Part shown: piece after piece, positions 3,212 to 55,859 of the stretch
Position numbering within the stretch: the stretch's first letter is position 1
Layout of the letters: every line of letters begins with the position of its first letter
IMG/VR virus record: IMGVR_UViG_3300045988_012935
Span: 1-55,859 of that record
From: a virus
Direction: 5' to 3' (one strand)
Length of the DNA stretch: 55,859 nucleotides
Notes under the pieces: model-generated
What the model saw: only the letters and a program-made list of their open reading frames with translations
Database searches by the model: none
Told to the model about the DNA's origin: nothing
Position numbers and translations under genes: made by a program

Positions 3212-3439
3212 ATGAAATTTACAAAATTCATTAAGCCAGAACTTGAACAAATCAAAGAAAATGCCAATTTCACGGAAGAAGAGGAGAGGATTTTCTCTCT
3301 TCTCTGCCGTGGTTTTTCACAAAAGCAAATATCCACAAAAGAAAACCTATCACTAAGAACGATAGAGTACAGAGTGAGAGATATAAAAGATAAAATAGAA
3401 AGAACGGGGGTATTTGATTGGATGAAAAAGAACTGTTGA
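3212..3439 (+). CDS. Small HTH regulator, LuxR / sigma-70 region-4-like
   Basis: EEEERIFSLLCRGFSQKQISTKENLSLRTIEYRVRDIKDKI resembles the GerE/LuxR-type HTH. Confidence 0.55.
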   Translation: MKFTKFIKPELEQIKENANFTEEEERIFSLLCRGFSQKQISTKENLSLRTIEYRVRDIKDKIERTGVFDWMKKNC

Positions 3440-4635
3440 AATATGCCGTTGATAGTGGTATTCTCGACATAGCACTTGTGCAAGAACAAGTTGAAATGAA
3501 CAAAAGAGAAAAGATACTAAAGAAACACCCATATGATATATGGGAAGGGAAAGATGGGTATTGGAGAACCTATATTTCATGCAAGGAGAAAGGGAGAAAG
3601 CTACTTAAGAAAAAAGATAGGGTCGATATTGAAAATGAGGTTATCGATTATTTACAGATTCAAGAAGAAAATCCAACCATTGATGAAGTGTTTGAAGAGT
3701 GGAACGACAGGCGGTTGGCACTGAACAAGATTGGAAATGCAACGCACCAAAGGAATCGCAACTTTTATCAAAGGCACTTTAAACAAATGGGTAAAAGGCG
3801 CATAAAATCAATATCGGAAGATGAATGGGGAGATTTCCTTGAAGAGCAGATTCCGAAGTTTAACTTGACGGCAAAGGCGTTTTCCGGACTAAAAGGGATA
3901 ACCAAAGGGTTTCTGAAACGAGCCAAAAAGCGGAAGTTGATTGATTTTAATGTTGAAGAATTGTTTGAGGAGCTTGATACATCTGATTCCGATTTCAAAC
4001 GAACGATCAAGGAAGATTACGAAGAGGTTTTTGACGAGAATGAAACTGATATTATGATTAAATATTTGGAATGCAACCTTGATTTATCAAACATAGCAAT
4101 ACTTCTAATGTTCGTGACCGGAATGAGAATAGGAGAGGTTGTGTGCCTAAAACATGATGATTTTGACGGTAATACGGTCAAGGTTCGGCGAACCGAAACA
4201 AGGTATCGTGGAGAGGATGATGCAAAATATACGGTTGCGATAAAGGATTTCCCAAAGACGAGAGCTGGGGCAAGAACAATTATCATCCCAAAGGACTACG
4301 AGTGGTTGTGTGATAGGATCAGAAAAACGAATCCATTTGAAGAATTTGTGTTCATTAAAGAAAATGGAGAGCGCTTGAATGCGAATTGTGTAAGAATGCG
4401 ATTACAGAGATTGTGCGATAAGTTAGGAATCTATCGAAAGTCTCCACATAAGATCCGAAAGACATACGGAACCATCCTTCTTGACAACAATATTGACGAG
4501 CGGTTGATCCTTGGTCAGATGGGGCACGCAAGCCTAGGAACTACAGAGGAACACTACCACAGGAACCGCAGATCTATCGAGAAAAAGTCAGATATTTTAA
4601 GTAGTATACCAGACTTCAAAGCACGAACAAGTTAG
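3418..4635 (+). CDS. int: Tyrosine recombinase / phage integrase
   Basis: C-terminal catalytic pattern: ...MRIGEV..., HKIRKTYGT, GHASLGTTEEHYHR (R..H-x-x-R..H/Y). TTG start at 3418; alternative ATG at 3496. Confidence 0.9.
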   Translation: MDEKELLKYAVDSGILDIALVQEQVEMNKREKILKKHPYDIWEGKDGYWRTYISCKEKGRKLLKKKDRVDIENEVIDYLQIQEENPTIDEVFEEWNDRRLALNKIGNATHQRNRNFYQRHFKQMGKRRIKSISEDEWGDFLEEQIPKFNLTAKAFSGLKGITKGFLKRAKKRKLIDFNVEELFEELDTSDSDFKRTIKEDYEEVFDENETDIMIKYLECNLDLSNIAILLMFVTGMRIGEVVCLKHDDFDGNTVKVRRTETRYRGEDDAKYTVAIKDFPKTRAGARTIIIPKDYEWLCDRIRKTNPFEEFVFIKENGERLNANCVRMRLQRLCDKLGIYRKSPHKIRKTYGTILLDNNIDERLILGQMGHASLGTTEEHYHRNRRSIEKKSDILSSIPDFKARTS

Positions 4636-4638
4636 TCG

Positions 4639-4679
4639 TTTGATTACTATTTTGAAAAAAGTAATCAAAAGTAATCAAA
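4639..4679. repeat. attP arm-type repeats (P arm): GTAATCAAA x3
   Basis: tttgattac (inverted) at 4639-4647; gtaatcaaa at 4661-4669 and 4671-4679. Confidence 0.7.
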
Positions 4680-4721
4680 GTAAAAACGCTACAAGCCGCA
4701 TAAACACTGAAAAGTTGATGC

Positions 4722-4753
4722 TTTGTGCAGGGGTTCGAATCCCCTTATTGGCT
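4722..4753 (+). other. attP core: 3-prime fragment of a tRNA gene (T-arm plus acceptor strand)
   Basis: AGGGG-TTCGAAT-CCCCT followed by TATTGGC at 4729-4752; no matching 5-prime half upstream; 90 bp downstream of int. Confidence 0.7.
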
Positions 4754-4803
4754 TTCAGAAAACCGCATAAAATCAAGGTTTTCTATAGATTAGGGGAAAG
4801 AGA

Positions 4804-4834
4804 GTAATCAAAAAGTAATCAAAAGGTAATCAAA
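4804..4834. repeat. attP arm-type repeats (P-prime arm): GTAATCAAA x3
   Basis: gtaatcaaa at 4804, 4815 and 4826; an inverted partial copy tgattac at 4905-4911. Confidence 0.7.
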
Positions 4835-4923
4835 AAAGGCTCGGAAGCCTTGATTATACTAAAGAAAGGAGTTTCTTGTACAAGTGCTAAAAGTTAATTG
4901 AATATGATTACTATGGAAGTTTG

Positions 4924-4946
4924 GACGCATTGAGCGTCTTTTTTTT
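4924..4946 (+). terminator. Rho-independent terminator
   Basis: GACGC-attga-GCGTC followed by T8. Confidence 0.6.
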
Positions 4947-5023
4947 ATGCGGTTTTTCTGCTTATTTTTTGCGGAAGAACCGTATTTTTTTATGCAAAAA
5001 TATAAGCATAGGAGGGATGCGGA

Positions 5024-5176
5024 ATGTTATTTACAGATGAAATTCTTGAAAAAATCTTAACAAGAGAAGATGTGTCAAAGGTTCCGCTTGTGTATCAGTC
5101 AGCAATGATTCACGCAATCAAGGAAGTATTGGAGGAAGAGAATGTATCAGATGCAAAATCAGAATATGGCATTTAA
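5024..5176 (+). CDS. Hypothetical 50-aa protein, first ORF of the cargo cassette
   Basis: GGAGGGA RBS 5011-5017, ATG 5024, MLFTDEILEKILTREDVSKVPLVYQSAMIHAIKEVLEEE... Confidence 0.4.
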   Translation: MLFTDEILEKILTREDVSKVPLVYQSAMIHAIKEVLEEENVSDAKSEYGI

Positions 5177-5618
5177 CCCAAACCCAAGCTATGCCGCATA
5201 TCAGTACAACCCAATGCAGAGGTTTCAACAGCCAGAGCCACAGATTCCGCAGATGCAACCACAGTTTCTTGGAATCCAAGGAAAAGTAGTGCAGTCGGAA
5301 TCAGCGATCATGGCGAATGATGTGCCTATGGATGGAAGCGTTGCGTTTTTCCCAATGCAGGATATGAGCGCAATCGTAGCAAAACAATGGGATGCCAATG
5401 GAACAATCAGAAAGACCGTTTACAAGCCTTTTAATGAACAGATGGCGGATTCTTCAAGTGACGATAAAAGAATCGAAATAGGGCTATCTGACGATGCGAC
5501 AAAGGCTATTACTGACAAATTAGATTGCTTGTTTGGAAAGATGGAAGAGTTGGAAGATAAGCTATCTTCGCAAACGCAAAGAAAATCTTCACGAACACAA
5601 AAGGAGAGTGAGTCTTAA
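5142..5618 (+). CDS. Q/P/M/N-rich low-complexity protein
   Basis: ORF track; the N-terminal 45 aa are almost only Q, P, M, N, Y; GGAGGA RBS. Confidence 0.6.
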   Translation: MYQMQNQNMAFNPNPSYAAYQYNPMQRFQQPEPQIPQMQPQFLGIQGKVVQSESAIMANDVPMDGSVAFFPMQDMSAIVAKQWDANGTIRKTVYKPFNEQMADSSSDDKRIEIGLSDDATKAITDKLDCLFGKMEELEDKLSSQTQRKSSRTQKESES

Positions 5619-5845
5619 TGAATCCTATGCAAATGTTACAAGGTATGAGAAACCCACAGCAGTTTTTACAACAAATGATGGGGAATAAAAGCGTAATGAA
5701 CAACCCTATGGCTCGTAATGCTATGCAGATGGCACAAAAGGGAGATTCCAAGGGCATCGAACAGATGGCTAGGAATTTGTGCAAAGAAAAGGGAATTGAC
5801 GCAGACAAGGCTTTTGAGTCGTTTAAAAGCCAATTAGGAATGTGA
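5618..5845 (+). CDS. Met/Gln/Asn-rich 75-aa protein
   Basis: ORF track; MNPMQMLQGMRNPQQFLQQMMGNKSVMNNPMARNAMQMAQ; ATGA-type overlap with the upstream gene. Confidence 0.55.
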   Translation: MNPMQMLQGMRNPQQFLQQMMGNKSVMNNPMARNAMQMAQKGDSKGIEQMARNLCKEKGIDADKAFESFKSQLGM

Positions 5846-5899
5846 TACTAATTCTTGCAAGATTATGTATATAAAAAATGAATTATGGAGGTAAATTCT

Positions 5900-6661
5900 A
5901 TGTTTAACACAGGTAATTGTGCATCCGTTCCGCTTGTCGCGAACATTGACGGAAACGGAAATAACAACGGATGGGGCGCAGAAGGCTCATGGTTATGGTT
6001 CATTATCGTTATCTTCGCTATCTTCGGATGGGGTGGATTCGGTAACGGATTCGGAGGAAACGGAATGAATGGTGGTGTCGGAAGCGAAATCCAGCGCGGA
6101 TTTGATAATCAGGCGGTTGTGTCAAAACTTGACGGCATTACAAACGGACTTTGTGACGGATTCTATGCAGTGCAAACCGGCATGAACGGCATCAACACAA
6201 ACATTTTGCAGACCGGATTCGGCATTCAGCAGGCTATCAACGCTGATACAGTCGCTAATATGCAGAATACAAACGCATTACAGTCACAGCTTGCTAACTG
6301 CTGCTGCGAAACAAGAGAAGCTATCCAAGGTGTAAACTACAACATGGCAACTAACACTTGCGCTTTGCAGAACACCATGAACAGCAACACGAGAGACATT
6401 ATCGACAGTCAGAATGCAGGAACACGCGCTATCCTTGATTATCTCTGCAATGAGAAAATTTCTAGCTTACAGGCAGAAAATAACGACCTTCGCAGAGCAG
6501 CTTCACAGGATCGTCAGAGTGCACTGCTTACAACTCAGATGGCGGCTCAGACACAGCAGATTATCAATGCAGTAAATCCGGCTGCAATCCCGGCATATGT
6601 CGTACCTAACCCAAATGCTTATGCATATGGATGTGGATGCAACGCCGGTTGTAACTGCTAA
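5900..6661 (+). CDS. Single-pass membrane protein, Gly/Asn-rich N-terminus, N/Q-rich body, Cys-rich C-terminus
   Basis: GGAGG then ATG 5900; TM WLWFIIVIFAIFGW; CCC motif; ends ...YGCGCNAGCNC. Confidence 0.6.
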   Translation: MFNTGNCASVPLVANIDGNGNNNGWGAEGSWLWFIIVIFAIFGWGGFGNGFGGNGMNGGVGSEIQRGFDNQAVVSKLDGITNGLCDGFYAVQTGMNGINTNILQTGFGIQQAINADTVANMQNTNALQSQLANCCCETREAIQGVNYNMATNTCALQNTMNSNTRDIIDSQNAGTRAILDYLCNEKISSLQAENNDLRRAASQDRQSALLTTQMAAQTQQIINAVNPAAIPAYVVPNPNAYAYGCGCNAGCNC

Positions 6662-6731
6662 AACTAAATAATTGAGTATCTTAATTGAGTTTAACTCAAT
6701 CATGTCTGCTATGCAGTATTACTTATAACCA

Positions 6732-6763
6732 AAGGGCAGACTATAATGTTTGCCCTTATTTTT
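6732..6763 (+). terminator. Rho-independent terminator inside the cargo cassette
   Basis: AAGGGCA-12 nt-TGCCCTT followed by ATTTTT. Confidence 0.55.
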
Positions 6764-6783
6764 ATGAAAGAGAGGTAAAAATA

Positions 6784-7203
6784 ATGGAAATAACAGGAAT
6801 TGCATTACAAACCGTTGCTGCTGGAGAAGATGTGGCATTCACAGAAACAGCAGTAAACGGAACAAAATGTATCGTACACAGACAGGGAAGTGGAATTATC
6901 AAGCTAAGAGGTATCACAAATCAGTGCAAGGCTAGATTCCTTGTGTCGTATTCCGGCAACATTCAGGTCCCGACAGGCGGAACAGTTGGAGAGATTTCAC
7001 TTGCAATCGCGGTTGATGGAGAGCCTTTGCAGTCAACAAAGATGATCGTAACGCCAGCCGCAGTTGAGAATTTCTTTAATGTATCGGCGCAGGCATACGT
7101 TGATGTGCCTTGCGGTTGTTGCAGTACCGTAGCCGTGCAGAATACGTCCACACAGGCTATTGAAGTACAGAACAGTAATTTGATTGCAGTAAGGGAGGCT
7201 TGA
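6784..7203 (+). CDS. All-beta protein resembling C1q/TNF-like BclA C-terminal (exosporium) domains
   Basis: AGAGAGG RBS, ATG 6784. The pattern QTVAAGEDVAF..GSGIIKLRG..FLVSYSGNIQV..ISLAIAVDGEPL..NVSAQAYVDV..VAVQN..IEV is recalled from the BclA-CTD family; not searched. Confidence 0.45.
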   Translation: MEITGIALQTVAAGEDVAFTETAVNGTKCIVHRQGSGIIKLRGITNQCKARFLVSYSGNIQVPTGGTVGEISLAIAVDGEPLQSTKMIVTPAAVENFFNVSAQAYVDVPCGCCSTVAVQNTSTQAIEVQNSNLIAVREA

Positions 7204-7207
7204 TATT

Positions 7208-7888
7208 ATGCATAAGTTTGCGAAACAGATTATGGATTGTGTGAAAGCCCACGTTGACGGCATCGGAATTGAGAATTTTGAGGGTCAAAACCTTGATGAT
7301 CTCAAGGATTGGACAGAAATTGCGAAGAACATCGTATGCTTTGACAAGGACTATAACATTGTTGAAGCCATGAAAAAGTCTGAAGATGAAGAAATCATGC
7401 GCATGGTGGAAGAATTTGGGGATTATCCGGGAAGAAGATACTACAATGAGTACCGGTACTCAAACGGAAGATTTGCACCGAAAGGACGTGGAACACGCAG
7501 AGGATATGTGGAACCGCCATATTATCATCAGATGCCGGAAGATTACCACGAATGGGAGAGTATGCCGGAATACGACCGAATGAGAGACCTTGACAGAATG
7601 AGTATGGGAAAGATGTATTATTCAGGGCCTATGAGCGGAAATAACGGCATGGGTACCGGTACTCACGATGCAAGAGAGGGCAGAGCCGGTATGAGCCGGA
7701 GAAGCTACATGGAGACAAAGGAAATGCATAACGGAAATTCACCGGAAGATAAGGACGCAAAGATGAAAGAACTTGAAAAGTACATGAAATCTCTTTCGGA
7801 AGATGTGACAGAACTGTTTTCCGGTATGTCCCCAGAAGAGAAACAGTTGACCAAGACAAAGCTGACTACTCTTGTCACGAAAATGTAA
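7208..7888 (+). CDS. Tyr/Arg/Met/Glu-rich protein of unknown function
   Basis: ORF track; central YYNEYRYSNGRFAPKGRGTRRGYVEPPYYHQMPEDYHEWESMPEYDRMRDLDRM. Confidence 0.55.
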   Translation: MHKFAKQIMDCVKAHVDGIGIENFEGQNLDDLKDWTEIAKNIVCFDKDYNIVEAMKKSEDEEIMRMVEEFGDYPGRRYYNEYRYSNGRFAPKGRGTRRGYVEPPYYHQMPEDYHEWESMPEYDRMRDLDRMSMGKMYYSGPMSGNNGMGTGTHDAREGRAGMSRRSYMETKEMHNGNSPEDKDAKMKELEKYMKSLSEDVTELFSGMSPEEKQLTKTKLTTLVTKM

Positions 7889-8247
7889 TGGAGAGGGCAT
7901 TTTGCCCTCTTTGTTTGCGAGGTGGTAAATTGTTCACGATAAACAATGAAATATGGAATTTGGTCAAAGTATCGCGTTACAGCGATATGCTACAGAGAAG
8001 TGACGGAAGCAGAACGGTAGGCATGACCGACAGGGACACGAAAACGATATATCTTGCGGATGATCTACGCGGAAAATTCCTTGACCGTGTGTTATGCCAC
8101 GAATTATGTCATGCGTTCTGTCTTTCGTATAATGTATACATGGATATTGATACAGAGGAAATTGTAGCAGACTTCTTGGCTACATACGGAAGAGAAGTAT
8201 TTGAAATAGCAGACAGACTATTGATTGAACTTATGGAGGTTGCATAA
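7888..8247 (+). CDS. Small HExxH zinc-metallopeptidase-like protein (SprT-like)
   Basis: CPLC near the N-terminus and VLCHELCHAF (HExxH). Confidence 0.5.
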   Translation: MERAFCPLCLRGGKLFTINNEIWNLVKVSRYSDMLQRSDGSRTVGMTDRDTKTIYLADDLRGKFLDRVLCHELCHAFCLSYNVYMDIDTEEIVADFLATYGREVFEIADRLLIELMEVA

Positions 8248-8249
8248 TA

Positions 8250-8408
8250 ATGGATAAAATTTCAGAACTCTTACAGTACGTGCACCGGACGAATCCGGAA
8301 ATGACTAGAGAAAGGCTGATAGAAGAGTTGAGCAAAAGTGATTATGCGGCGCGGTCTTTGATTTTTACGAAAGAAAATTTTTCCCGCGCGCCAAAAAATA
8401 TTTCGTAA
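8250..8408 (+). CDS. Hypothetical 52-aa protein
   Basis: ATG 8250 after GGAGG; MDKISELLQYVHRTNPEMTRERLIEELSKS...; TAA 8406-8408. Confidence 0.4.
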   Translation: MDKISELLQYVHRTNPEMTRERLIEELSKSDYAARSLIFTKENFSRAPKNIS

Positions 8409-8416
8409 TTTTTTTG

Positions 8417-8439
8417 TACCCCCCTGGGGTAGCGTTTTT
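8417..8439 (+). terminator. Hairpin plus T-run closing the cargo cassette
   Basis: TACCCC-cct-GGGGTA then gcgTTTTT. Confidence 0.4.
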
Positions 8440-8621
8440 GGGGTCAAGATTCCATTTTCACGGATTCCCCAAAACGTGCAATTATCTCAAGATGTGTAAC
8501 TTTAATAGATTGATGCGGTGCGCCATGGTTTGAGGGGTGGTGCACCGCTAAACATAATCGTATATGGGTTATTGGGAATAATACATATACATTTAGAGGC
8601 TATCATAACAGAAACAACAAG

Positions 8622-8891
8622 TCAATAGCTTTCTTTGTAACCGTCGTCGCTGTAACTGCAGTATGTCTGCGTTGTATGCTCTGGCTCTTCTGTGATTGCG
8701 TTGTATGTTGTTTGCGTGATCTGCAACCAATCACCGCCGCGCTGTGCGGTTATTTTTAATCTTGGCGATTCCAGCCACTCGATACCATCAAATTTTGAAT
8801 AGCTGCAAAGCTTGCCGGATGTCATCGGATAGCCAAGGGCAGACACCCGCCGCATGATCTCCCTTTTGCCGATATACTCATATTTTCCCAT
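8622..8891 (-). CDS. Hypothetical protein (leftward block)
   Basis: ORF track 8622..8921; internal ATG at 8891 preceded by GGAGGTGGG. Confidence 0.5.
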   Translation of the reverse strand: MGKYEYIGKREIMRRVSALGYPMTSGKLCSYSKFDGIEWLESPRLKITAQRGGDWLQITQTTYNAITEEPEHTTQTYCSYSDDGYKESY

Positions 8892-9045
8892 CTTTCCCAC
8901 CTCCAGATGTTTCGCGCTCACTCATGCATATATCTTTGCATCCGTCGCGTGATAGCTGGTTTATAATTAACCATGCTTGCATATCTCCATACGCCACCCG
9001 GCGCAGAGTTTGCCCCTTAAAAGTTGCCTTAATATCATAGATCAT
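8878..9045 (-). CDS. Hypothetical 55-aa protein (leftward block)
   Basis: AGGAGGGA RBS (9053-9060 complement), ATG 9045, MIYDIKATFKGQTLRRVAYGDMQAWLIINQ... Confidence 0.35.
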   Translation of the reverse strand: MIYDIKATFKGQTLRRVAYGDMQAWLIINQLSRDGCKDICMSERETSGGGKDGKI

Positions 9046-9254
9046 AGGTTTATCCCTCCTTTTCTGTGTTTATTTGTCAATTTTCGCATGGAAACTAATT
9101 TCCATGTATTCCGCGCCGCCGGAATCGGACCGGAACACAACGCCACCAAGCACGCGAAAAGGGCGCGTATTACGCCGTTTTCGTTTCGTTATTGCAGAAA
9201 TTCCGCCCCTAGGTCATGAACCTGCGCCCACAGCAGTGGGGGAGCGGGAGAGTA
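9046..9254 (-). other. GC-rich, highly structured 209-nt spacer inside the leftward operon (candidate cis-regulatory RNA or sRNA)
   Basis: On the - strand: CCCAC-tgct-GTGGG, GGCGT-aatac-GCGCC plus a U-run, CCGG-tccgatt-CCGG (T-arm-like), CATGGAAA-ttag-TTTCCATG. Confidence 0.3.
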
Positions 9255-9620
9255 CTAATATTTTTCTGGATTTGTAACTCTGTCAAAACCAAAGAAAAAC
9301 TTTGCATTGCTTGCCCTGTTTGCCTTGTCCGCTGTAGCCTTGTCAATTTCGCAATATCCTATCACCTCGCGATTCCTCCATATAGCATACTTTTTCAATG
9401 GTTTCTTGTCATCAACTATAAGAAAATGCCTATTTTCAAAAAATAATGTTGTACCATATCCAGGCAAGAAAGCACTTTTGATTGTTTTGTCTATTATTTC
9501 CTTTTGGGTATAATCAACAATATAATTTGTTTTGTAATCGTTCGGTATTCTTTCCCATTCTTCCCTTGTTAAAATGTGTAAAACGCTTTTGCTTTCGTCT
9601 GATAACTGTATTTTTTTCAT
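9255..9620 (-). CDS. Hypothetical protein (leftward block)
   Basis: ORF track 9255..9686; ATG 9620 (MKKIQLSDESK...) preceded by GGTGG. Confidence 0.5.
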   Translation of the reverse strand: MKKIQLSDESKSVLHILTREEWERIPNDYKTNYIVDYTQKEIIDKTIKSAFLPGYGTTLFFENRHFLIVDDKKPLKKYAIWRNREVIGYCEIDKATADKANRASNAKFFFGFDRVTNPEKY

Positions 9621-10477: not shown

Positions 10478-10506
10478 ATTATATTAAATATAAGGCACAA
10501 AATCAA
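10478..10506 (-). promoter_or_regulatory. Leftward sigma-70-type promoter with an operator box in the spacer
   Basis: On the - strand: TTGATT-17 nt-TATAAT; the spacer contains the reverse complement of TATAAGGCACAAAA. Confidence 0.6.
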
Positions 10507-10612
10507 TTGACATAATATACAAAATATAAGGCACAAAACATAATTTTGCTTGTGAAATATGTATAAGGCGCAAAACCGCATGAAACATTATATAAGGAAA
10601 GAAAACTTTTCC

Positions 10613-10641
10613 TTGACTTATAAGGCACAAAACATTATAAT
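10613..10641 (+). promoter_or_regulatory. Rightward promoter of the RHH gene, box in the spacer
   Basis: TTGACT-17 nt (tataaggcacaaaacat)-TATAAT. Confidence 0.7.
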
Positions 10642-10672
10642 GATAGCAAACAGAGAAAGAGAGGTTCGAAGC

Positions 10673-10864
10673 ATGGAACGTAAGACAACAGAAGCAACAC
10701 GGCGCGCAATCTATAGATATGATGATAAGTTTGAGCGTGTTAATTGCAGATTTGCAAAAGGAACAAAGGATCGCATAGAAAAGCTTGGATACAAGAGCGC
10801 AAACGACTTTATTAAACTTGCAGTCGCGGAAAAGCTGGAGCATGACGAAAAAATCTTGAAATAA
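10673..10864 (+). CDS. Ribbon-helix-helix (Arc/CopG-like) DNA-binding protein
   Basis: AGAGAGG RBS, ATG 10673; KTTEATRRAIYRYDDKFERVNCRFAKGTKDRIEKLGYKSANDFIKLAV resembles RHH fold proteins. Confidence 0.5.
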   Translation: MERKTTEATRRAIYRYDDKFERVNCRFAKGTKDRIEKLGYKSANDFIKLAVAEKLEHDEKILK

Positions 10865-10878
10865 GGCACAAAAAACTA

Positions 10879-10907
10879 TTGACATATAAGGCACAAAATG
10901 TTATAGT
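10879..10907 (+). promoter_or_regulatory. Second rightward promoter, box in the spacer
   Basis: TTGACA-17 nt (tataaggcacaaaatgt)-TATAGT. Confidence 0.65.
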
Positions 10908-11273: not shown

Positions 11274-11594
11274 ATGAAAAGAAATGATTTCAAAAAGATT
11301 ATAAAAATTAGAAGTCAGTGGCAATTTACAGGCGATAATTATAAGTTGCCAAGCGGTGATCCGATTTCCGTATATGTAAGAAAATTGGTTGAATCGCAGA
11401 TGAATGTCGATAGCTTGGCAATATTGAAAAATGGGGATTTGTCTTTTGCGACCGGAGGAAAGTGGAACGACACAACAAAAGAGTTTGAAGGCTATGTGCT
11501 GATGCCAGCATTTCAGGAAAATGAGACTTGCGAGTTTGACGAAATGGAAAAACGTATTGACGCATTGGTTTACGAGCTGGTTCAGAAGCAATAA
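11274..11594 (+). CDS. Hypothetical protein
   Basis: ORF track; AGGAGGAAATAAACATG. Confidence 0.6.
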   Translation: MKRNDFKKIIKIRSQWQFTGDNYKLPSGDPISVYVRKLVESQMNVDSLAILKNGDLSFATGGKWNDTTKEFEGYVLMPAFQENETCEFDEMEKRIDALVYELVQKQ

Positions 11595-15512: not shown

Positions 15513-15598
15513 CTTAAGTCCGCAAATGATAATTCTCTGCTGAATAATTGATCTATCGGCGTTAGGCTTTGAATTACGTTTGCGGACGAATGCAACAT

Positions 15599-15669
15599 TG
15601 GGCTATCGCCAAGCGGTAAGGCACAGGATTTTGATTCCTGCATTCCGGGTTCGAATCCCGGTAGCCTAA
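15599..15669 (+). tRNA. tRNA-Gln (anticodon UUG)
   Basis: Hand-folded cloverleaf: acceptor TGGGCTA/TAGCCTA (U1-A72 as in bacterial tRNA-Gln), anticodon arm CAGGA-TTTTGAT-TCCTG, T-arm CCGGG-TTCGAAT-CCCGG; near-collinear with E. coli tRNA-Gln. Confidence 0.85.
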
Positions 15670-15896
15670 TTGGTTACATGTTGACGTTTCATGTAGCCAC
15701 GTATGTTTTCCATACGTACTTGAACCATTGGCTGAGAGTTTCAGACATTGGGTTCTCCTTTCACCAACTAGGACGCTTTCTGTTAAGGGCGGTGCGAGAC
15801 CGTCAGGTTGGTCTATATCATGCGTCTATCCAACGGCGCATGATCGTGTAACGCATAGCACGTAAAACATATTGCTAACCGTCTCGTGGCGGTTAT
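15670..15896 (+). ncRNA. 227-nt structured spacer between tRNA-Gln and tRNA-Glu (unassigned RNA)
   Basis: Hairpins at 15672-15698 (9 bp), 15699-15717 (7 bp perfect), 15817-15844 (8 bp perfect) and 15877-15894 (5 bp); no T-loop, no convincing ORF. Confidence 0.3.
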
Positions 15897-15967
15897 GATC
15901 GGTTAGTCGAGCGGTAAGACACCACCCTTTCACGGTGGTAACACGAGTTCAAATCTCGTACCGGTCA
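15897..15967 (+). tRNA. tRNA-Glu (anticodon UUC)
   Basis: Acceptor GATCGGT/ACCGGTC, D-loop AGCGGTAA, anticodon arm CCACC-CTTTCAC-GGTGG, T-arm ACGAG-TTCAAAT-CTCGT. Confidence 0.8.
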
Positions 15968-15973
15968 CTATAT

Positions 15974-16045
15974 TGGGATTTAATTCAGTGGTAGAAGACA
16001 CGGCTTATATCCGGGTTGTCGCGGGTTCGATTCCTGCAATCCCAA
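15974..16045 (+). tRNA. tRNA-Ile (anticodon UAU, reads AUA)
   Basis: Acceptor TGGGATT/AATCCCA, D-loop AGTGGTA, anticodon arm CACGG-CTTATAT-CCGGG (one A-G mismatch), T-arm GCGGG-TTCGATT-CCTGC. Confidence 0.7.
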
Positions 16046-16154
16046 CGACAGGGGTGAACCTTGCCGTAAGCGGTAGAAAGTCCGCATGAAATTGTACAAA
16101 AGTAGCGACAAAAGCAATTTCGAGTGTAGCGGTTTCGCTATAGCCGCTATATTT

Positions 16155-16238
16155 GCCGTGTGTCCGGTTGGTCGAGGGTGCTGTCTTGAAAACAGTCTGG
16201 ATGTAAAAGTCTCTGGGGTTCAAATCCCTAACACGGCG
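16155..16238 (+). tRNA. tRNA-Ser (anticodon UGA), type II with a long variable arm
   Basis: Acceptor GCCGTGT/ACACGGC perfect, anticodon arm GCTGT-CTTGAAA-ACAGT, 17-nt variable region, T-arm TGGGG-TTCAAAT-CCCTA. Confidence 0.7.
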
Positions 16239-16390
16239 TGCGTTGCTGAAGGATGCGACCAGTGGTTGCTATTGAGAAGCGAAAATTCTAGAAAGTAACT
16301 TTGTTGAGATAGTGACAAATCCTCTTGTTTTGGAAAGAAATGAAAAAGTTTGACCGTTTCAAGTTTCAAAAAATCGTGACAACTTTATGT

Positions 16391-28359: not shown

Positions 28360-29049
28360 ATGGCAGTAATTATCGGAAGTGCGCGGCACGATGAACACGG
28401 AAACTGTTATTCTGGTGGAAAAGCCGGAGACCAGACCGGACAGGAAGTGTCTACGCAGAAGTTTTATAACCATTCTAAGGGATGGTACGTGCTAAGGGCG
28501 AAGGACGATAGGGTTGCGGAGAAGTTAGCCGAAGCTATGCAGATTGCATCTGACAACAAAAATATCGGCTATGACCAATCAGAACGCTACGGAGTCATTA
28601 AGCATGGCATTAACACAAAGGTCAAGACGGAATGCGATTGTTCTTCTCTTGTGCGTGCCTGTATTATCTATGCATCCGGCAAGGATGTGGGAGATTTCAA
28701 TACATCTAATGAACGACCGGTAATTTTGAAATCCGGTTTGTTTGATGATATGGGTTCTTATCATGCCGGTTTTATTCTTCGCAACGGAGATATTCTTGTG
28801 ACACGCATAAAAGGGCACACAGTTATTGTTGTAAAAGGCGCAAAGAAATGCAAAGCCAAGTATTATCCGAAGTATAAGGGAAACTCAAACTCAATCGTTG
28901 AAGCATTAAAAGCGGTTGGGGAAGATGATGTGTCGAAAGAACATCGTGCGGAAATCGCAAAAAAGAACGGATTTTCCAATTTTAAGTTTACATCAGAGGA
29001 AAATTCAAAAATGCTTTCTCTTCTGAAAAAGGGAAAACTGAAAAAGTAA
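28360..29049 (+). CDS. Cell-wall hydrolase (NlpC/P60- or CHAP-like Cys-His peptidase/amidohydrolase), candidate endolysin
   Basis: GKAGDQTGQEV, IGYDQSERY, ECDCSSLVRACI (catalytic Cys) and KGHTVIVV (His); C-terminal SIVEALKAVG...NGFSNF...LSLLKKGKL module. Confidence 0.6.
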   Translation: MAVIIGSARHDEHGNCYSGGKAGDQTGQEVSTQKFYNHSKGWYVLRAKDDRVAEKLAEAMQIASDNKNIGYDQSERYGVIKHGINTKVKTECDCSSLVRACIIYASGKDVGDFNTSNERPVILKSGLFDDMGSYHAGFILRNGDILVTRIKGHTVIVVKGAKKCKAKYYPKYKGNSNSIVEALKAVGEDDVSKEHRAEIAKKNGFSNFKFTSEENSKMLSLLKKGKLKK

Positions 29050-32100: not shown

Positions 32101-32870
32101 CGAAGATAGCTTCAAAGGCTTCTGATCTTTGGGAAAAGTTTAAGACTTCGTGGGGCAAGTCGAAAACCGCGCAGTTCTTACTGAAAATTGGTTCAAAGGC
32201 AAAAGATTTATGGAGCAATTTTAAAACCGCATGGGGTGAAAGCAAAACAGCGAAATTCTTCCTTAAAATAGGCTCTAAGATTAGTGAATTGTGGAAAGAT
32301 TTTAAAGAATCATGGGGCGAGAAGAGAACAGTCAAATTTTTGACAAAGAGAGCAACAAGGATAAGTGAGTTATGGAAAGACTTTAAAGATTCATGGGGGG
32401 ATAAAAAAGCCGTAACTATTGGAATTGGGTTTGCGAAGAACTCATTAAACAATCTTTGGTCATCTGTAAAAGGATTTTTCGGTGGTAAGACTGTTAGTGT
32501 TGGTACGAAAGCTACAAAGAAAGCTGATGGCGGTGTATTTTCCGGCGGAAGTTGGAAGCCGGTTAAGAAATACGCAGTCGGTGGATTGCCGAATATGGGA
32601 CAGATGTTCGTTGCAAGAGAAGCAGGACCGGAACTTGTCGGAACGCTTGGTGGTCATACAGCAGTAATGAATAACGATCAGATTGTATCGTCTGTTTCTT
32701 ACGGAGTTGCACAGGCTGTAAAGGAAGTTATTCAGCCACTTGTGAAAATGGGTGGAGGAAATAATCGACCGATTCAGATTGCACTTGACGGAAAAGTTAT
32801 CTTTGATAGCACACGGCAAAGCGCAAAAGAATATTTTGATCGTACCGGAAGATCTCCATATCCGGTATAG
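29115..32870 (+). CDS. Tape measure protein
   Basis: 1251 aa, TTG start after AAGGAGGTG; long helical N-terminus, Gly-rich linker SGSGSGGSGGGSGAGGSGGGD, tandem W/F repeats. Confidence 0.9.
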   Translation: MELETLEIKIQAQARQASGQIDALVTRLGRLSSALSGLSTGNLNSLATGVKRLSNSMSAMRSVDTRTFSALARNLNKLSGINATGLNNVSNAISTISGSIRALSGIDFKGNGLNAFINSVTKLSSANLSSLNRFDFGSLGNKINQLSNSLSGAKKVQGNTIQLVNAIGRLASSSGNMAETASSLPSLGRAIRSVTNSLSSAKAVSENIIKFTSAIGQLAIAGKKTAQTASNLGILATELKKFMQVMSNAPVLNNNIIQMTQAIAQLASSGGRAGNASKSFSNMFSGYSSSASVATKKSFSLASAIGKVYATYWTLFRAFRLLRDAIDISSSLTEVENVVRQTFGQYESLINNFAKTSIEKFGMSELSAKQFASRFQAMGTALDIPQGKMADMSIRLTELAGDMASFYDVSQEDIAKSLQSVFSGTTAPMRRYGIDLTQATLKEWALKQGLDANISSMTQAQKAMLRYQYVLAHTTNITGDFARTADTWHNQITMLKENFKALGAVVGGGLINAFKPFIKALNSVLQKVISFAEMVTNALGSIFGWKYEASKGAGISGLADDIGSASDGMDDLSNAAGSAGKNTGGIAKNAKKAKKEIQQATRAFDELKVISKQSKDNTSGSGSGGSGGGSGAGGSGGGDTGKLVQTDTIFKKFKSDIKDLEGLGESIRDALVNAVGGIEWDKIYAKASGFGSGLASFLNGLFSEDKKGNSVFTATADVIAGALNTAIFASKGFTDKFDFETFGTNLAHGFNRFFKKFKWKQCAEAINGWVDGFWSFAVGFFGDLSWSGIFNGLKTFLTSLSSKTIATILGAYALKKFSKSAVGALADSVGGQILTAKIKKAFFTIAAITIAAEGGLTIGEAIGKKIAELTQPEEMQKYQTTFNFSDLFSYSLDDWKQGFSDWWDDTFGPAFELMALDMATGNYKFKIPFTDFELPSFNEAKKGFANWLSGVNKYWSKKKDSVLEIGAKIKNKASELWNGFKKDWENVKNKVAEFKTKIASKASDLWEKFKTSWGKSKTAQFLLKIGSKAKDLWSNFKTAWGESKTAKFFLKIGSKISELWKDFKESWGEKRTVKFLTKRATRISELWKDFKDSWGDKKAVTIGIGFAKNSLNNLWSSVKGFFGGKTVSVGTKATKKADGGVFSGGSWKPVKKYAVGGLPNMGQMFVAREAGPELVGTLGGHTAVMNNDQIVSSVSYGVAQAVKEVIQPLVKMGGGNNRPIQIALDGKVIFDSTRQSAKEYFDRTGRSPYPV
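32036..32400 (+). repeat. Five tandem ~27-aa (81-bp) repeats within the tape measure
   Basis: SKASDLWEKFKTSWGKSKTAQFLLKIG / SKAKDLWSNFKTAWGESKTAKFFLKIG / SKISELWKDFKESWGEKRTVKFLTKRA / TRISELWKDFKDSWGDKK... Confidence 0.85.
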
Positions 32871-32934
32871 TGACAAACTCCTCTGCTTGTGGTATATTGA
32901 TATGTATATATTACAAGCAAGGAGGAATTTGATT

Positions 32935-33609
32935 ATGAAACAAAGTGGATGGGGAATTGCATCTTTAGTGTGCGGAATAGCAGGCGTTTTGTTAGCGTGC
33001 GTTGTCATCGGAATATTTCCGGCAATAGTTGGAATTGTATTTGCGATTATAGCACTTGCGCAGAAAAACAGGGGGCACGGAACGGCTATAGGCGGTTTGG
33101 TATGTTCAATAGTCGGCATTATTATTTTCTTTTTAGCAATGTTTGTATTCACAAGCGATGATACGAATGATACGCCTAAAAAAATATCATCGAATGAAGA
33201 AGCACAAACTCAGGCAACGGAAGAAAAGGTTAATGAACCATTTAAAGTTGGAGATACTGTTGAGACGGAAGATTTGAGGATTACGTTTTTGAAAGCCGAG
33301 CCGTACACAGAAGAATACGACGAGCCAGCAAAAGGACATGAGTTTTACAAATTTGAGTTTGAATTTGTAAATATTTCAGATTCGGATCAATGTGTTTCTT
33401 CTTTGGATTTCAACTGTTATGCGGATGGATATGATATGGAAAGCGCATATTCAAGCAAGGATAAAGATTTGGATGCAACATTATCAGCCGGGAAGAAGAC
33501 AAAAGGTGTTGTATGCTTTGAAATCCCAAAGGATGCCAAAGATATTTCTCTTGAATATGAAACAAACTATTGGAACGAATCAAAGGTATGCTTTGAAGTT
33601 AAAAAGTAA
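32935..33609 (+). CDS. Membrane protein, DUF4190-like TM N-terminus plus DUF4352-like beta domain (moron)
   Basis: AAGGAGG RBS, ATG 32935; GWGIASLVCGIAGVLLACVVIG..., then VGDTVETEDLRITFLKAE...FEFEFVNISDSD...LSAGKKTKGVVCFEIPKDAKDISLEY. Confidence 0.55.
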   Translation: MKQSGWGIASLVCGIAGVLLACVVIGIFPAIVGIVFAIIALAQKNRGHGTAIGGLVCSIVGIIIFFLAMFVFTSDDTNDTPKKISSNEEAQTQATEEKVNEPFKVGDTVETEDLRITFLKAEPYTEEYDEPAKGHEFYKFEFEFVNISDSDQCVSSLDFNCYADGYDMESAYSSKDKDLDATLSAGKKTKGVVCFEIPKDAKDISLEYETNYWNESKVCFEVKK

Positions 33610-33618
33610 ATGATATTT

Positions 33619-33645
33619 AAGCCGTGGAAACACGGCTTATTTTAA
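33619..33645 (+). terminator. Rho-independent terminator
   Basis: AAGCCGTG-gaaa-CACGGCTT then ATTTTAATT. Confidence 0.65.
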
Positions 33646-33658
33646 TTCAAAAATCTGA

Positions 33659-33687
33659 TTGACACAAAATCAAAAATAGTCTATCCT
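33659..33687 (+). promoter_or_regulatory. Candidate promoter
   Basis: TTGACA-17 nt-TATCCT. Confidence 0.4.
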
Positions 33688-33754
33688 TATTACTAAGGAA
33701 ACAACCTTATCCGTGAAGAAGCGGATTACTTACTCGAACGCCATACTGTACGAA

Positions 33755-33797
33755 AGAGGAAACCAATGTGATTTCACAAGTGGCTTCCTCTTTTTTA
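33755..33797 (+). terminator. Strong hairpin plus U-run about 70 nt downstream of the candidate promoter (attenuator or sRNA terminator)
   Basis: AGAGGAAACCA...TGGCTTCCTCT (10 of 11 bp) with inner TGTGA/TCACA, followed by TTTTTT; 31 nt upstream of the Bro-N gene. Confidence 0.55.
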
Positions 33798-33828
33798 TTC
33801 AGATAAAAATGTATGGAGGTAGACACGA

Positions 33829-34629
33829 ATGAAAAAATCACAACTTATGCTTAAGATTCAAAACGGCATTAAGGTATTTGAGAATCCAATATTCGGACAG
33901 ATTAGAATGACCATGGTCGATGATGAACCGATGTTTTGCCTTGTTGATGTTTGCAGGGCATTGGAAATGTCAAACAGCCGTATTGTTGCTGATAGACTAG
34001 ACGAGGATGAACGACGTAAGTTAAACTTACCCCGTCAAGGAGAAACTTGGTTTGTTACTGAATCCGGCTTATATGCGGTTATCGTTCGGAGCGATAAGCC
34101 GAATGCCAGGAAGTTTCGCAAGTGGGTAACATCAGATGTTCTCCCTACAATCCGTAAAACAGGTGGGTATGTCAATAATGATGAATTATTTATTTCCACT
34201 TACCTACCATATGCAGATGAAAACACTAAGCTGATATTTTCCCAGACATTAAAAACTGTTAGGGAGCAGAACGAAACCATTAAAAGGCAGAAGAAAGAAA
34301 TCATCCATAAGGAAGATGTTATTATCGGGCTTGTTGATGATATTGACTTGGCAACCAAGAGACAGCGGATAACGCAGATTGTCCGTTTCGGTGCCGATGG
34401 AAAGTATCAAGAACGCTATTCATTGCTTTATGGAGAATTTGAAAGGAAATATCACTGCAACCTTAAATCAAGGATGGAAGGGTGCACACTCAAACCGAAA
34501 GTAAGAAACAAGATGGATTATATCGACAGGGAAATGGGAATGATTCCGCAGTTGTACGAAATCGCTTGCAAACTTTTTGAAAACGATGTAGAAAAGCTGA
34601 AATCTGAATGGGAATCAGTAGTAGCTTAA
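33829..34629 (+). CDS. Bro-N domain protein (antirepressor-like), moron in the tail module
   Basis: FENPIFGQIRMTMVDDEPMFCLVDVCRALEM...FVTESGLYAVIVRSDKPNARKFRKWVTSDVLPTIRKTGGY. Confidence 0.75.
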   Translation: MKKSQLMLKIQNGIKVFENPIFGQIRMTMVDDEPMFCLVDVCRALEMSNSRIVADRLDEDERRKLNLPRQGETWFVTESGLYAVIVRSDKPNARKFRKWVTSDVLPTIRKTGGYVNNDELFISTYLPYADENTKLIFSQTLKTVREQNETIKRQKKEIIHKEDVIIGLVDDIDLATKRQRITQIVRFGADGKYQERYSLLYGEFERKYHCNLKSRMEGCTLKPKVRNKMDYIDREMGMIPQLYEIACKLFENDVEKLKSEWESVVA

Positions 34630-40226: not shown

Positions 40227-40244
40227 ACCCTGCCTTTTCTTTTA
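40212..40244. terminator. Bidirectional terminator
   Basis: AAGGCAGGG-cgttgaa-CCCTGCCTT with T-rich tracts on both strands. Confidence 0.65.
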
Positions 40245-40640
40245 GAATATAAATTTTTCGAAAAATTCACATAACAATTCTTTTTTGCTTACCGGCAATC
40301 TGCTATATTCAATAATAATTTTTTTGAAACGTTCATCATTCATTCCAATATTTAATGCAACACTTGAAAATTCTTCGTCAACAGGTTTATTAATGCGCGG
40401 GTCTATTAAATCTGTTTTTCCGATTTTGAAATAATCAGCCAATGCCTGAAGCTTTCCTGACCTTGGAAATGATTTTCCGGTACACCACATATTTAAGGTT
40501 GTTGGGTTAATACCTAAGTCTTTTGCAACATCTATTTGCTGTTTTTGATTTAATCCAATATAGTATCTTAAATTTTCAGCAAACACTTCTTTTTGGATAT
40601 CGTCTACATCCATTTCATTAAATTGATTTTCGTTATCCAT
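40242..40640 (-). CDS. CI-like repressor (XRE-family HTH)
   Basis: AAAGGAGGA RBS, ATG 40640; FAENLRYYIGLNQKQQIDVAKDLGINPTTLNMWCTGKSFPRSGKLQALADYF. Confidence 0.75.
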   Translation of the reverse strand: MDNENQFNEMDVDDIQKEVFAENLRYYIGLNQKQQIDVAKDLGINPTTLNMWCTGKSFPRSGKLQALADYFKIGKTDLIDPRINKPVDEEFSSVALNIGMNDERFKKIIIEYSRLPVSKKELLCEFFEKFIF

Positions 40641-40665
40641 TTCTTCTGTCCTCCTTTCTGATTGT

Positions 40666-40694
40666 ATTATAAACCAATAAAATAAAAAATTCAA
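40666..40694 (-). promoter_or_regulatory. Leftward promoter of the repressor gene
   Basis: On the - strand: TTGAAT-17 nt-TATAAT. Confidence 0.55.
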
Positions 40695-40724
40695 TATTAA
40701 ATCCAATAAATTTGAATTTTAGTG

Positions 40725-40753
40725 TTGACAATCCAAAATAATTGGATTATGAT
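40725..40753 (+). promoter_or_regulatory. Rightward early promoter with an operator palindrome in the spacer
   Basis: TTGACA-17 nt-TATGAT; AATCCAA-aataa-TTGGATT at 40730-40748. Confidence 0.7.
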
Positions 40754-40784
40754 TAAACCATCAAATATGAAAGGAGAAAAAAAG

Positions 40785-40988
40785 ATGCCTAGAATTTCAT
40801 TAGAAGCAGTTCGCGTAAATGCGAAAATGACACAAAAGGAATGGGCTGAAATGCTTGGTGTATCTAATGCAACCGTTGTCAATTGGGAAAAGGGCAAAAC
40901 AGAGCCTAGCTTATCACAGTTGAAAACCATGAGCAAATTATCTGGTATTCCAATGGATTTTATTTTTGTGCCAGATACATCCAATTAA
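40785..40988 (+). CDS. Cro-like XRE-family HTH protein
   Basis: GGAGAAAAAAAG RBS, ATG 40785; MTQKEWAEMLGVSNATVVNWEKGKTEPSLSQLKTMSKLSGIP. Confidence 0.75.
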   Translation: MPRISLEAVRVNAKMTQKEWAEMLGVSNATVVNWEKGKTEPSLSQLKTMSKLSGIPMDFIFVPDTSN

Positions 40989-40995
40989 ATTGGAT
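40979..40995. promoter_or_regulatory. Second operator-like palindrome ATCCAATT-A-AATTGGAT
   Basis: Perfect 8+8 palindrome overlapping the cro stop codon; same ATCCAAT core as the operator at 40730. Confidence 0.5.
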
Positions 40996-41022
40996 TATAA
41001 AAGAAAGGAAGCGAGTGAGGAC

Positions 41023-55804: not shown

Positions 55805-55859
55805 GGCTTTAGATGTGGCAATACAGGCACTTGAAAAAGTAGAACAGTACCGAGCAATC
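55805..55859. repeat. 55-bp terminal direct repeat, right copy
   Basis: Exact match to positions 1-55. Confidence 0.95.

Follow-up and report, generated by a model that had tools for sequence, protein, structure and literature searches.

A phage accessory operon with a TNF/C1q-fold protein beside the attachment site of a temperate siphophage

Are genes that lie beside the attachment site of a prophage, and whose products recall the outer layers of bacterial spores, borrowed from the host, or do they belong to the phage? The question is raised by a viral sequence of 55,859 nucleotides (nt) (IMG/VR virus record IMGVR_UViG_3300045988_012935, positions 1 to 55,859; this whole stretch is called the window below), in which eight co-oriented open reading frames (ORFs), c1 to c8, occupy positions 5024-8408 on the + strand. 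A preliminary description had tentatively taken most of this cassette for prophage cargo that decorates or remodels the host's spore or cell surface. We find that the cassette is a self-contained phage accessory operon with a TNF-fold component and not a set of host-type spore genes. As to its role, our preferred reading, to which we give a probability of roughly 0.35, is that of an autonomously transcribed phage operon whose membrane-anchored coiled-coil stalk and TNF-fold trimer would reshape the envelope of vegetative cells, infected or lysogenic, in exclusion or adhesion.

The ORFs, compositions and motifs listed in the preliminary description are all present on the + strand, and c8, missing from that list, completes the set. 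Since the ratio of nonsynonymous to synonymous polymorphism (pN/pS) is low throughout (0.08, 0.02, 0.06, 0.07, 0.05, 0.09, 0.15 and 0.13 for c1 to c8, from 28-63 distinct alleles per ORF in 80 IMG/VR relatives), all eight are genuine genes under strong purifying selection, including those of low complexity such as c2, in which Q, P, M, N and Y make up 71% of the first 45 residues. Searches of Pfam, NCBIfam and PADLOC returned nothing significant for any cassette protein, PADLOC giving only a coiled-coil-level match of c4 to ZorA (E 0.0096) and none for the others, and sequence and profile searches of the PDB with c2, c4, c5, c6 and c7 gave chance matches only. As the earlier account had it, the products are unlike virion, replication or lysis proteins, in that no known family of this kind was matched. 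They do match phage protein families: c4 falls in phrog_16490 (6e-58) and c5 in phrog_20016 (3e-67), c7 matches phrog_1233 (1.4e-12), a family of unknown function, and c2, for which neither Pfam nor the PDB holds a match, reaches phrog_21718 at 3.5e-4. The publicly annotated matches of c4 and c5 are all phage records, so the statement that these are not phage proteins does not hold. The label SprT-like for c7 survives in part: the HExxH motif is there, but the Pfam matches (DUF6782, SprT-like and M78) all stay below the curated thresholds, at 21.6 against 27, 20.4 against 25.6 and 16.7 against 22 bits.

The resemblance to spore proteins centers on c5. An AlphaFold2 (AF2) model, built from a 61-sequence alignment of 50%-identity representatives of the family, is all-beta and of high confidence (predicted local distance difference test, pLDDT, 98.1; predicted TM-score, pTM, 0.90). 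The family comprises 3522 clusters at 90% identity and 670 representatives at 50%; its members are standalone proteins of 130-160 amino acids (aa), and the window protein is a jelly-roll throughout. Foldseek against the PDB placed the C-terminal domain (CTD) of F-BclA first (9h38, 6e-8), ahead of EDA-A1 (query TM-score, TMq, 0.71), BxpB, the BclA CTD (1wck, 4e-6, TMq 0.67), ExsFA, 4-1BBL and C1q, with BxpB/ExsFA entries at TMq 0.77 (8d02), 0.76 (7r1m) and 0.76 (9h3d); it also returned two cyanophage tail proteins, the phage-fibre entries among the fold matches including 8ke9 and 9k09. The earlier guess of a BclA-CTD/C1q/TNF fold is thus borne out by structure prediction. Against BFVD, the best matches are standalone proteins of 130-145 aa from metagenome-assembled genomes (MAGs) of gut sipho-, myo- and podophages, two of them carrying the automatic annotation 'BclA protein', followed by collagen/C1q tail-fibre proteins.

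The likeness is one of fold and not of family, because sequence-level links to BclA_C or ExsF were not found. c5 matches no Pfam family at E<=1, no NCBIfam entry and no PDB sequence or profile, and hhalign of its profile against ExsF gives a probability of 0.56% (E 0.1). None of the cassette proteins carries a TIGR03720-type exosporium leader or collagen repeats, and the implied membership in coat or exosporium families fails in general, with no sequence match to BclA_C (PF18573), ExsF, CotY or the exosporium leader. The TNF/C1q fold of c5 belongs to the phage gene pool, and spore biology cannot be read from a BclA/BxpB-like fold, even one accompanied by proteins rich in Cys, Gln and Tyr. Given its fold, c5 is presumably a trimer. 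It has no signal peptide, and its alleles are shuffled among close relatives (94% vs 54% identity).

The cassette recurs well beyond the window. Megablast of 4600-8700 against the phage collection found nothing and relatives emerged only at the protein level, where tblastn located c5 in 16 phage records and c4 in 28. The cassette follows the integrase in Dulem virus 39, as in the window; it lies between endolysin and integrase in Dulem virus 33, after the endolysin in Butyrivibrio virus Ceridwen (c2-c6), and in bajarodcaudo virus 5 it closes the late operon, behind holin and lysin. In Dulem virus 35 and two further loci (L014, L106) it sits inside the head module, between gp7-like minor capsid and scaffold/major capsid genes, in a zone that also holds methyltransferases and HNH genes. 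Gene order is well kept: c4 is immediately 5' of c5 in 19 of the first 21 loci, c3 homologues are immediately 5' of c4 in 15 loci, and the c2 family aligns across 15 loci. Where c5 is most divergent (38-39% identity to the window protein), c4 is still found upstream with hidden Markov model (HMM) E-values of 5e-42 and 9e-37 (the spacer being 12 nt in L111), preceded by c2- and c3-like genes, and c6-like genes follow c5. Homologues of c6 stand 3' of c5 in L002, L003, L008-L010, L018 and L021, and compositional analogues do so in L001, L004, L005, L012, L111 and L112. The expectation that the genes travel as a unit therefore holds for c2-c6, which recur in unrelated phages, and less so for c1, c7 and c8, which are less universal. 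A conserved protein of ~125 aa that looks like a papain-type cysteine peptidase (motifs NPNP..GDCA(V/I)RA and GNH) was seen upstream of the cassette in other lineages, directly before c2 in L001 (5984-6361) and L111 (5237-5617) and ~1.4-1.7 kb upstream in L012 (3246-3614) and L014 (3124-3507); the window has no copy.

Within its own lineage the cassette is fixed. Identity over the block 4921-8377/8478 amounts to 94-97% in the 80 relatives (L025-L104) collected through c5, and in most of them the integrase/att module (3535-4920) has been replaced, with breakpoints at 3534 and 4921. Many carry Rha and helix-turn-helix (HTH) regulatory inserts of 1.3-2 kb at ~8377, just after c8 and upstream of the terminator. 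Mosaicism thus proceeds by modules around a constant cassette. For an unbiased sample we collected relatives through an unrelated gene (11274-11594) instead of c5; c4 and c5 are present in each of the 41 loci that extend far enough upstream, including relatives in which the probe gene is 68-72% identical and c2, c6 and c7 have diverged to 37-49%. The cassette is a vertically maintained lineage core and no optional cargo. The reading as moron or lysogenic-conversion cargo, suggested by its position, fits poorly with this fixation and with an ordinary GC content (0.41-0.44 in the cassette, ~0.40 in the genome), while integrase/att and immunity modules are swapped around it. The spacer between c4 and c5 is the variable part, with indels of 50-440 nt in relatives and whole genes in other lineages, such as a 371-aa ORF in L014, which by eye resembles a C5-methyltransferase (LFAGIG motif).

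The second conserved component, c4, belongs to a family of at least 7996 clusters at 90% identity. Its hydrophobic segment (approximately residues 32-47 of the 253-aa form) is flanked by Gly/Asn; CCC stands at 139-141 of the 258-aa ORF, and the protein ends in ...YGCGCNAGCNC. Across the family CCC is invariant, further Cys and the tail Pro are near-invariant, and the tail follows the pattern P(I/V)PAYVVxNP...CGC. The AF2 monomer (74-sequence alignment) is helical; a single helix is hydrophobic, and the long ones span residues 70-101 and 145-225. Its pLDDT of 45, for which it was left out of the fold search, may fit an obligate oligomeric coiled coil.

Homologues of c4 reach viruses of other host phyla and domains. 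A protein of the crAss-like phage cr109_1 has the same architecture, with a Gly/Trp-rich hydrophobic segment, LANCCCTT.RSIDGVN where the window has LANCCCETREAIQGVN, and an ...NNCGC tail, and it is preceded by a c6-like protein consisting of a helical domain and a Tyr/Arg/Asp/Glu-rich tail. A search with the cr109_1 protein as query identified as carriers of homologues many crAss-like genomes, the cultured Bacteroides uniformis phage C3_41T2LP and two Methanomassiliicoccales viruses, for which the GenBank records independently label the gene phrog_16490; all records matched come from gut, faecal or animal-tissue samples. The module of C3_41T2LP ends with a gene annotated as a PolyVal metallopeptidase, to which c7 shows no similarity by BLASTP. 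BLASTP of c5 against the ORFs 3' of c4 in the crAss-like, Bacteroides-phage and archaeal-virus loci gave nothing significant, and the c5 HMM found no homologue adjoining c4 in cr109_1 (L006) or in bajarodcaudo virus 5 (L007). In the latter, the slot after c4 holds a 139-aa protein (8866-9285) with no Pfam match, whose Cys/Gly-rich N-terminus (GGYGCGGC) recalls the cysteine connectors of Ena spore-appendage subunits. The annotated coding sequence of the cr109_1 homologue (L006 4668-5651) contains two in-frame stops, consistent with stop-codon reassignment. We considered whether c3 might have split off as the N-terminal domain from c4 proteins of the longer kind seen in crAss-like phages and archaeal viruses, and rejected this, the c3 HMM scoring only 2-5 bits.

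Table 1. Features of the cassette and of its surroundings in the window; L numbers denote fetched loci.
Feature	Coordinates	Strand	Description
c1	5024-5176	+	50 aa, acidic; homologues in L002, L008, L009, L010, L018
c2	5142-5618	+	158 aa; Q/P/M/N/Y-rich head, small conserved domain, C-terminal helix
c3	5618-5845	+	75 aa, Met/Gln/Asn-rich (39% M/Q/N), NPxxM-type repeats
c4	5885/5900-6661	+	258/253 aa; single-pass membrane coiled-coil protein, phrog_16490; start at 5900 by most gene callers
c5	6784-7203	+	139 aa; standalone TNF/C1q-fold protein (BclA-CTD/BxpB-like), phrog_20016
c6	7208-7888	+	226 aa; helical ends around Tyr/Arg/Gly/Met-rich disordered centre (central region rich in Y/R/M/E/G/D/P)
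c7	7888-8247	+	119 aa; CPLC at residue 6, HELCH at residue 71; small Zn-metallopeptidase-like
c8	8250-8408	+	52 aa; homologues in L002, L008, L010, L018
Upstream terminator	4923-4947 (hairpin 4923-4939 and T-run)	+	left recombination boundary of the conserved block
Second GC hairpin and T-run	4970-4991 (hairpin 4970-4984)	+	directly upstream of the 18-nt element; equivalent in every aligned lineage
18-nt element TTTTATGCAAAAATATAA / TTTTATGCNAAAATNTAA	4988-5005	+	18 nt upstream of c1; single copy in the window
Internal terminator	6732-6763 (hairpin 6732-6757 and T-run)	+	in the variable c4-c5 spacer
Downstream terminator	8417-8439 (hairpin 8417-8431 and T-run)	+	right boundary
Tyrosine integrase	3418-4635		
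attP core	~4728-4753	+	identical to the 3' end of host tRNA-Thr(CGT)
ELLD endolysin-like-domain protein	28360-29049		PF25309, 3e-35; just upstream of the tape measure gene; only lysin-like gene

The terminators reported at both ends of the cassette and within it are present as hairpins with T-runs (Table 1), and the region 4400-9400 holds 9 terminator-like sites, compared with 4.1 +/- 2.1 in shuffles. Between the second upstream hairpin and c1 lies a short conserved element: of the 107 loci fetched, 72 have TTTTATGCNAAAATNTAA exactly once, just 5' of c1 or c2, among them the distant lineages L013, L020 and L106/L107, including lineages with the cassette in the head module, and it is kept where the cassette proteins have diverged to 30-50% identity. 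It always stands behind a GC hairpin whose T-run merges into it, and in each lineage checked the cassette is preceded by this hairpin and T-run with an element of the TRTG type. A scan of the + strand upstream of c1 gave no canonical -35/-10 pair. We read TTTTATGCAAAAATATAA as a putative sigma-A-type promoter of the TRTG extended -10 kind (TATG-C-AAAAAT; family TRTG-n-MAAAAT), a reading based on the Gram-positive -16 region (TRTG) reportedly described by Voskuil and Chambliss; L002 and L005 carry TGTG, an A-to-G change that still fits the TRTG consensus. Such a promoter would give a leader of ~15 nt containing the Shine-Dalgarno sequence. The combination of hairpin and candidate promoter argues for transcription independent of the late genes, and for this reason we rank envelope or lysogen-type roles above virion or lysis roles. 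A different motif, TATAAGGCACAAAA, has six copies (five exact, one with one mismatch; chance expectation 3.65 matches at up to 2 mismatches) in the switch region 10490-10898. They surround a small ORF (~10674-10864) and are set between TTGACx (-35-like) and TATAAT (-10-like) hexamers; the ORF looks ribbon-helix-helix-like by eye. This suggests the operator array of a genetic switch; TATAAGGCACAAAA was not found upstream of the cassette.

In the preferred reading, c4 would be the membrane anchor, with one transmembrane (TM) segment, a long helical cysteine-studded domain and a Pro-rich/CxC tail. By analogy with the Pro-rich exosporium leader of BclA/F-Anchor on ExsF/BxpB, that tail would dock on a c5 trimer; the ExsF trimer binds the leader in its inter-subunit clefts (preprint 10.1101/2025.02.11.637640). 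The complex may be stabilised through cysteines, c2, c3 and c6 would be its low-complexity partners and c7 a small Zn-protease-like protein. Such a complex, expressed in the lysogen or the infected cell, would remodel the envelope to the advantage of the phage, its likeliest role being that of a barrier, in exclusion or against adsorption, or that of an adhesin, and would act independently of sporulation.

Several observations weigh against this reading. One locus (L016) has c5-c6 without c4; in the crAss-like, Bacteroides and archaeal viruses c4 is present but no c5 could be detected; and in the window a terminator and an insertion hot spot separate the two genes. The candidate -10 hexamer (AAAAAT) is weak and has no -35. 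Because c5 lacks a signal peptide, it would meet an extracellular c4 domain only after lysis. The flanks of the hydrophobic segment of c4 (K/R 0.3 on the N side against 1.0 on the C side) weakly favour an N-out/C-in topology, which would place the complex in the cytoplasm. Several carriers, such as Ceridwen and the crAss-like phages, look virulent, and a role that benefits lysogens makes less sense there; a module so conserved could also serve a core step of the phage life cycle.

These points bear directly on the rivals. The acidic N-terminal tail of c4, nearly free of K/R, together with the signal-less c5, makes a cytoplasmic membrane-tethered complex a serious alternative, if on balance an unlikely one: c4 would be N-out/C-in and the assembly would act on nucleic acids or regulation, as a tether for replication or assembly (compare phi29 p16.7), as a device against defence systems, or as a relay from signal to induction via the c7 protease. 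Cys clusters would suit the reducing cytoplasm as the missing signal peptide does, c6 has an RGG/YS-type disordered region, c7 resembles SprT, ImmA or PolyVal-type Zn-proteases (a PolyVal-annotated gene ends the C3_41T2LP module, as noted above), the cassette adjoins the variable Rha/HTH region, and c4 is common to viruses across host domains. Yet beyond the ZorA-level coiled coil no DNA-binding or defence family was matched, the HTH character of c8 is an impression only, and the c7 matches are all under gathering thresholds. Somewhat less probable, and quite doubtful, is a virion accessory in which c4 and c5 form a fibre and knob on the particle (head or tail fibre, or decoration) and c2, c3, c6 and c7 are assembly factors. 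TNF/C1q knobs do cap phage fibres (the short tail fibre of cyanophage A-1(L), 8ke9; the A4 tail complex; many collagen/C1q fibres in BFVD), the annotations of c4 homologues in crAss-like phages, where they lie among structural genes, read 'outer capsid protein/viral fiber' or 'spike protein', and the head-module loci, the missing signal peptide, the fixation in the lineage and the exchange of c5 alleles, as in receptor-binding tips, point the same way. But the strongly hydrophobic TM-like segment of c4 is atypical of virion fibres, the 'fiber' labels are homology-pipeline annotations on a coiled coil and not proteomics, and the window cassette lies outside the late operon, between attP and the regulatory region, and has terminators of its own and a promoter-like element that the late genes do not share.

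A part in lysis or egress has a smaller chance again: c4 would be a T4-T-like (class III) holin, an antiholin or a spanin-like protein, and the other products would tune lysis. It has the short N-terminal tail, single TM segment and large C-terminal domain with conserved Cys of such proteins, its function at the membrane could transfer across host phyla, and the cassette lies directly 3' of holin/endolysin genes in Ceridwen, Dulem virus 33, bajarodcaudo virus 5 and cr109_1. A canonical holin-endolysin pair was sought in the window, including after the tail-fibre genes, and none was recognised. However, the phages with the cassette beside lysis genes own small holins, and cr109_1 has an i-spanin-like gene. 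The window cassette is ~20 kb from the end of the tail module and >20 kb from the nearest lysin-like gene (28360-29049). For a lysis effector, a constitutive-looking promoter of its own would be hazardous, neither Pfam nor PHROG gave a match to a holin or spanin, and c5, c6 and c2 would go unexplained. Least probable by far, to the point of being very hard to maintain, is the proposal that prompted this analysis, a lysogenic-conversion module whose products enter or remodel the host spore coat or exosporium. The closest folds to c5 are indeed those of the exosporium proteins BclA-CTD, F-BclA, BxpB and ExsFA, proteins assembled in a mother cell would likewise need no signal peptide, the Cys-, Q- and Tyr/Arg-rich compositions recall coat proteins, and the cassette is att-proximal and insulated. 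But the same fold is equally common in phage fibres, the upstream element, if a promoter, resembles a sigma-A extended -10 and not a sigma-E or sigma-K promoter, and neither Pfam nor NCBIfam links any product to BclA_C, the exosporium leader or CotY/ExsY/Cde, to which the ExsF comparison (hhalign probability 0.6%) and the missing collagen repeats may be added. Phages of the crAss-like group and of Bacteroides encode c4 and a c6-like protein, and archaeal viruses encode c4; Bacteroides and methanogens do not form spores. The c2-c6 unit is carried by Ceridwen, seen only in lytic growth on Butyrivibrio fibrisolvens, a rumen host (PMC7372960), and 29 sporulation genes kept by gut Lachnospiraceae are missing from those of the rumen, although human-gut Lachnospiraceae do retain many such genes (PMC3971600). 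With the unit in Ceridwen, c4 in phages and viruses of non-sporulating hosts, and no coat or exosporium family match, the spore reading is unsupported.

The genomic setting of the cassette is that of a phage. Bases 1-55 of the window are identical to 55805-55859 (an exact 55-nt terminal repeat), which identifies the window as a circular contig of ~55.8 kb. Among its products are TerL, portal, major head protein, tape measure, tail fibre and Ant, besides an SbcC-like protein, DnaB and two DNA methyltransferases; given this content, it is a complete temperate siphophage genome and no chromosomal segment. Its host is, to judge by an allele of c4 98% identical to that of the window on a 2.06 Mb MAG contig (L108), Roseburia faecis. 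On this contig, host genes and a tRNA-Thr(CGT) at 6784-6856 are followed directly by a match to window positions 4747-5024 and then by c1. Because this integrated copy joins the tRNA-Thr to window sequence, attP corresponds to the 3' end of tRNA-Thr, and the reported adjacency of cassette and attP is correct; in the prophage the cassette comes first after attL. Several IMG/VR prophage contigs begin at window position 4700 or 4728. The window-type Roseburia prophage, among those assembled most often from human-gut data, has >598 IMG/VR matches, with single alleles on hundreds of contigs. A transfer-messenger RNA (tmRNA) was rejected as the att target, as the Rfam match (17 bits against a gathering score of 47) reflects only T-arm similarity and the R. 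faecis contig shows tRNA-Thr. On either side of the attP core (~4655-4685 and 4803-4835) are AGTAATCAAAAG-type repeats, likely integrase arm sites.

Elsewhere in the window, four phage tRNA genes (Gln-TTG, Glu-TTC, Ile-TAT and Ser-TGA) lie at 15598-16239, upstream of the packaging genes. A segment at 32752-34629, inserted between the tape measure and distal tail genes, encodes a DUF4190/DUF4352 membrane protein and an ORF (33829-34629) that we call Ant-like because it resembles the second Ant gene (41750-42520), with which it has a 47-nt stretch of 81% identity in common. A second divergent HTH pair of low GC content (0.32), apparently an XRE-type repressor (minus strand) with a Cro-like partner (plus strand), HTH calls made by eye, occupies 40242-41286, upstream of Ant and the replication genes. 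The genome therefore seems to have two switch-like regions, this one and 10490-10898.

Strong purifying selection on all eight genes, fixation, a conserved cis-element and the presence of c4 across three host phyla or domains point to an important unnamed function. The module is not described in the libraries searched; the fold of c5 is known, and the architecture of c4 is generic. If the stalk-and-knob or exclusion model is true, the cassette would be a new envelope-modifying system relevant to competition among gut prophages. A broader proposal, which we consider unlikely, is that the cassette, or a c4 core with variable beta and disordered partners, is a gut-virus module spread habitat-wide, a Cys-cross-linked stalk and knob, resembling the exosporium nap, on infected cells or particles. 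It would then move between the phages of Firmicutes, those of Bacteroidota and the viruses of methanogenic archaea, as a new viral surface apparatus aimed at a feature of the gut environment or at competing viruses and not at a host-specific receptor.

Among known systems, the exosporium offers the closest parallel to c5: BxpB/ExsFA is likewise a standalone TNF/C1q jelly-roll of ~140 aa (TMq 0.76-0.77) without a signal peptide. The conserved Pro-rich terminal peptide of c4 may dock into trimer clefts in the fashion of the exosporium leader of BclA/F-Anchor in the Bacillus cereus group. The exosporium nap differs in having a collagen stalk and a leader motif, whereas the cassette has neither of these and no detectable sequence homology to it; its partner is a membrane-anchored coiled coil, and its genes are phage-borne and occur also in phages of non-sporulating hosts. 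The type II ligands of the TNF family (EDA-A1, 4-1BBL) follow the same logic of a short N-terminal tail, one TM segment, a stalk and a TNF-homology trimer, but in the cassette stalk (c4) and TNF-fold protein (c5) come as two polypeptides, the latter lacking an export signal; with sequence identity of just 8-14%, we do not suggest homology. Phage fibres (the collagen/C1q fibres, the A-1(L) short tail fibre, the Sf6-type needle knob and PRD1 P5) are alike in joining a trimeric coiled-coil or collagen shaft to a TNF-like knob. They are single polypeptides, encoded in tail modules and without a TM segment, whereas c5 is always standalone and the window cassette lies outside the structural operon. 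The Sf6/PRD1 knob comparison draws in part on PMC3741392. T4 holin T and Rz-type i-spanins resemble c4 in layout, a single TM segment lying between a short N-terminal tail and a large helical C-terminal domain in which Cys are conserved, and the cassette is often near lysis genes; but no family match links them, canonical holins and spanin-like genes coexist with it, and the window cassette has no adjoining lysin. Morons and superinfection exclusion (Sie) systems (lambda bor/lom, HK97 gp15, Sie2009, TP-J34 Ltp), to none of whose known Sie proteins the cassette is related in sequence, are alike in forming a unit of terminator, promoter-like element and terminator at a prophage edge or module junction, in including a membrane protein and in differing in position between phages. 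They consist of one or two genes and are sporadic, whereas the cassette comprises eight genes of ordinary GC content, fixed in its lineage (41/41) and found across phyla.

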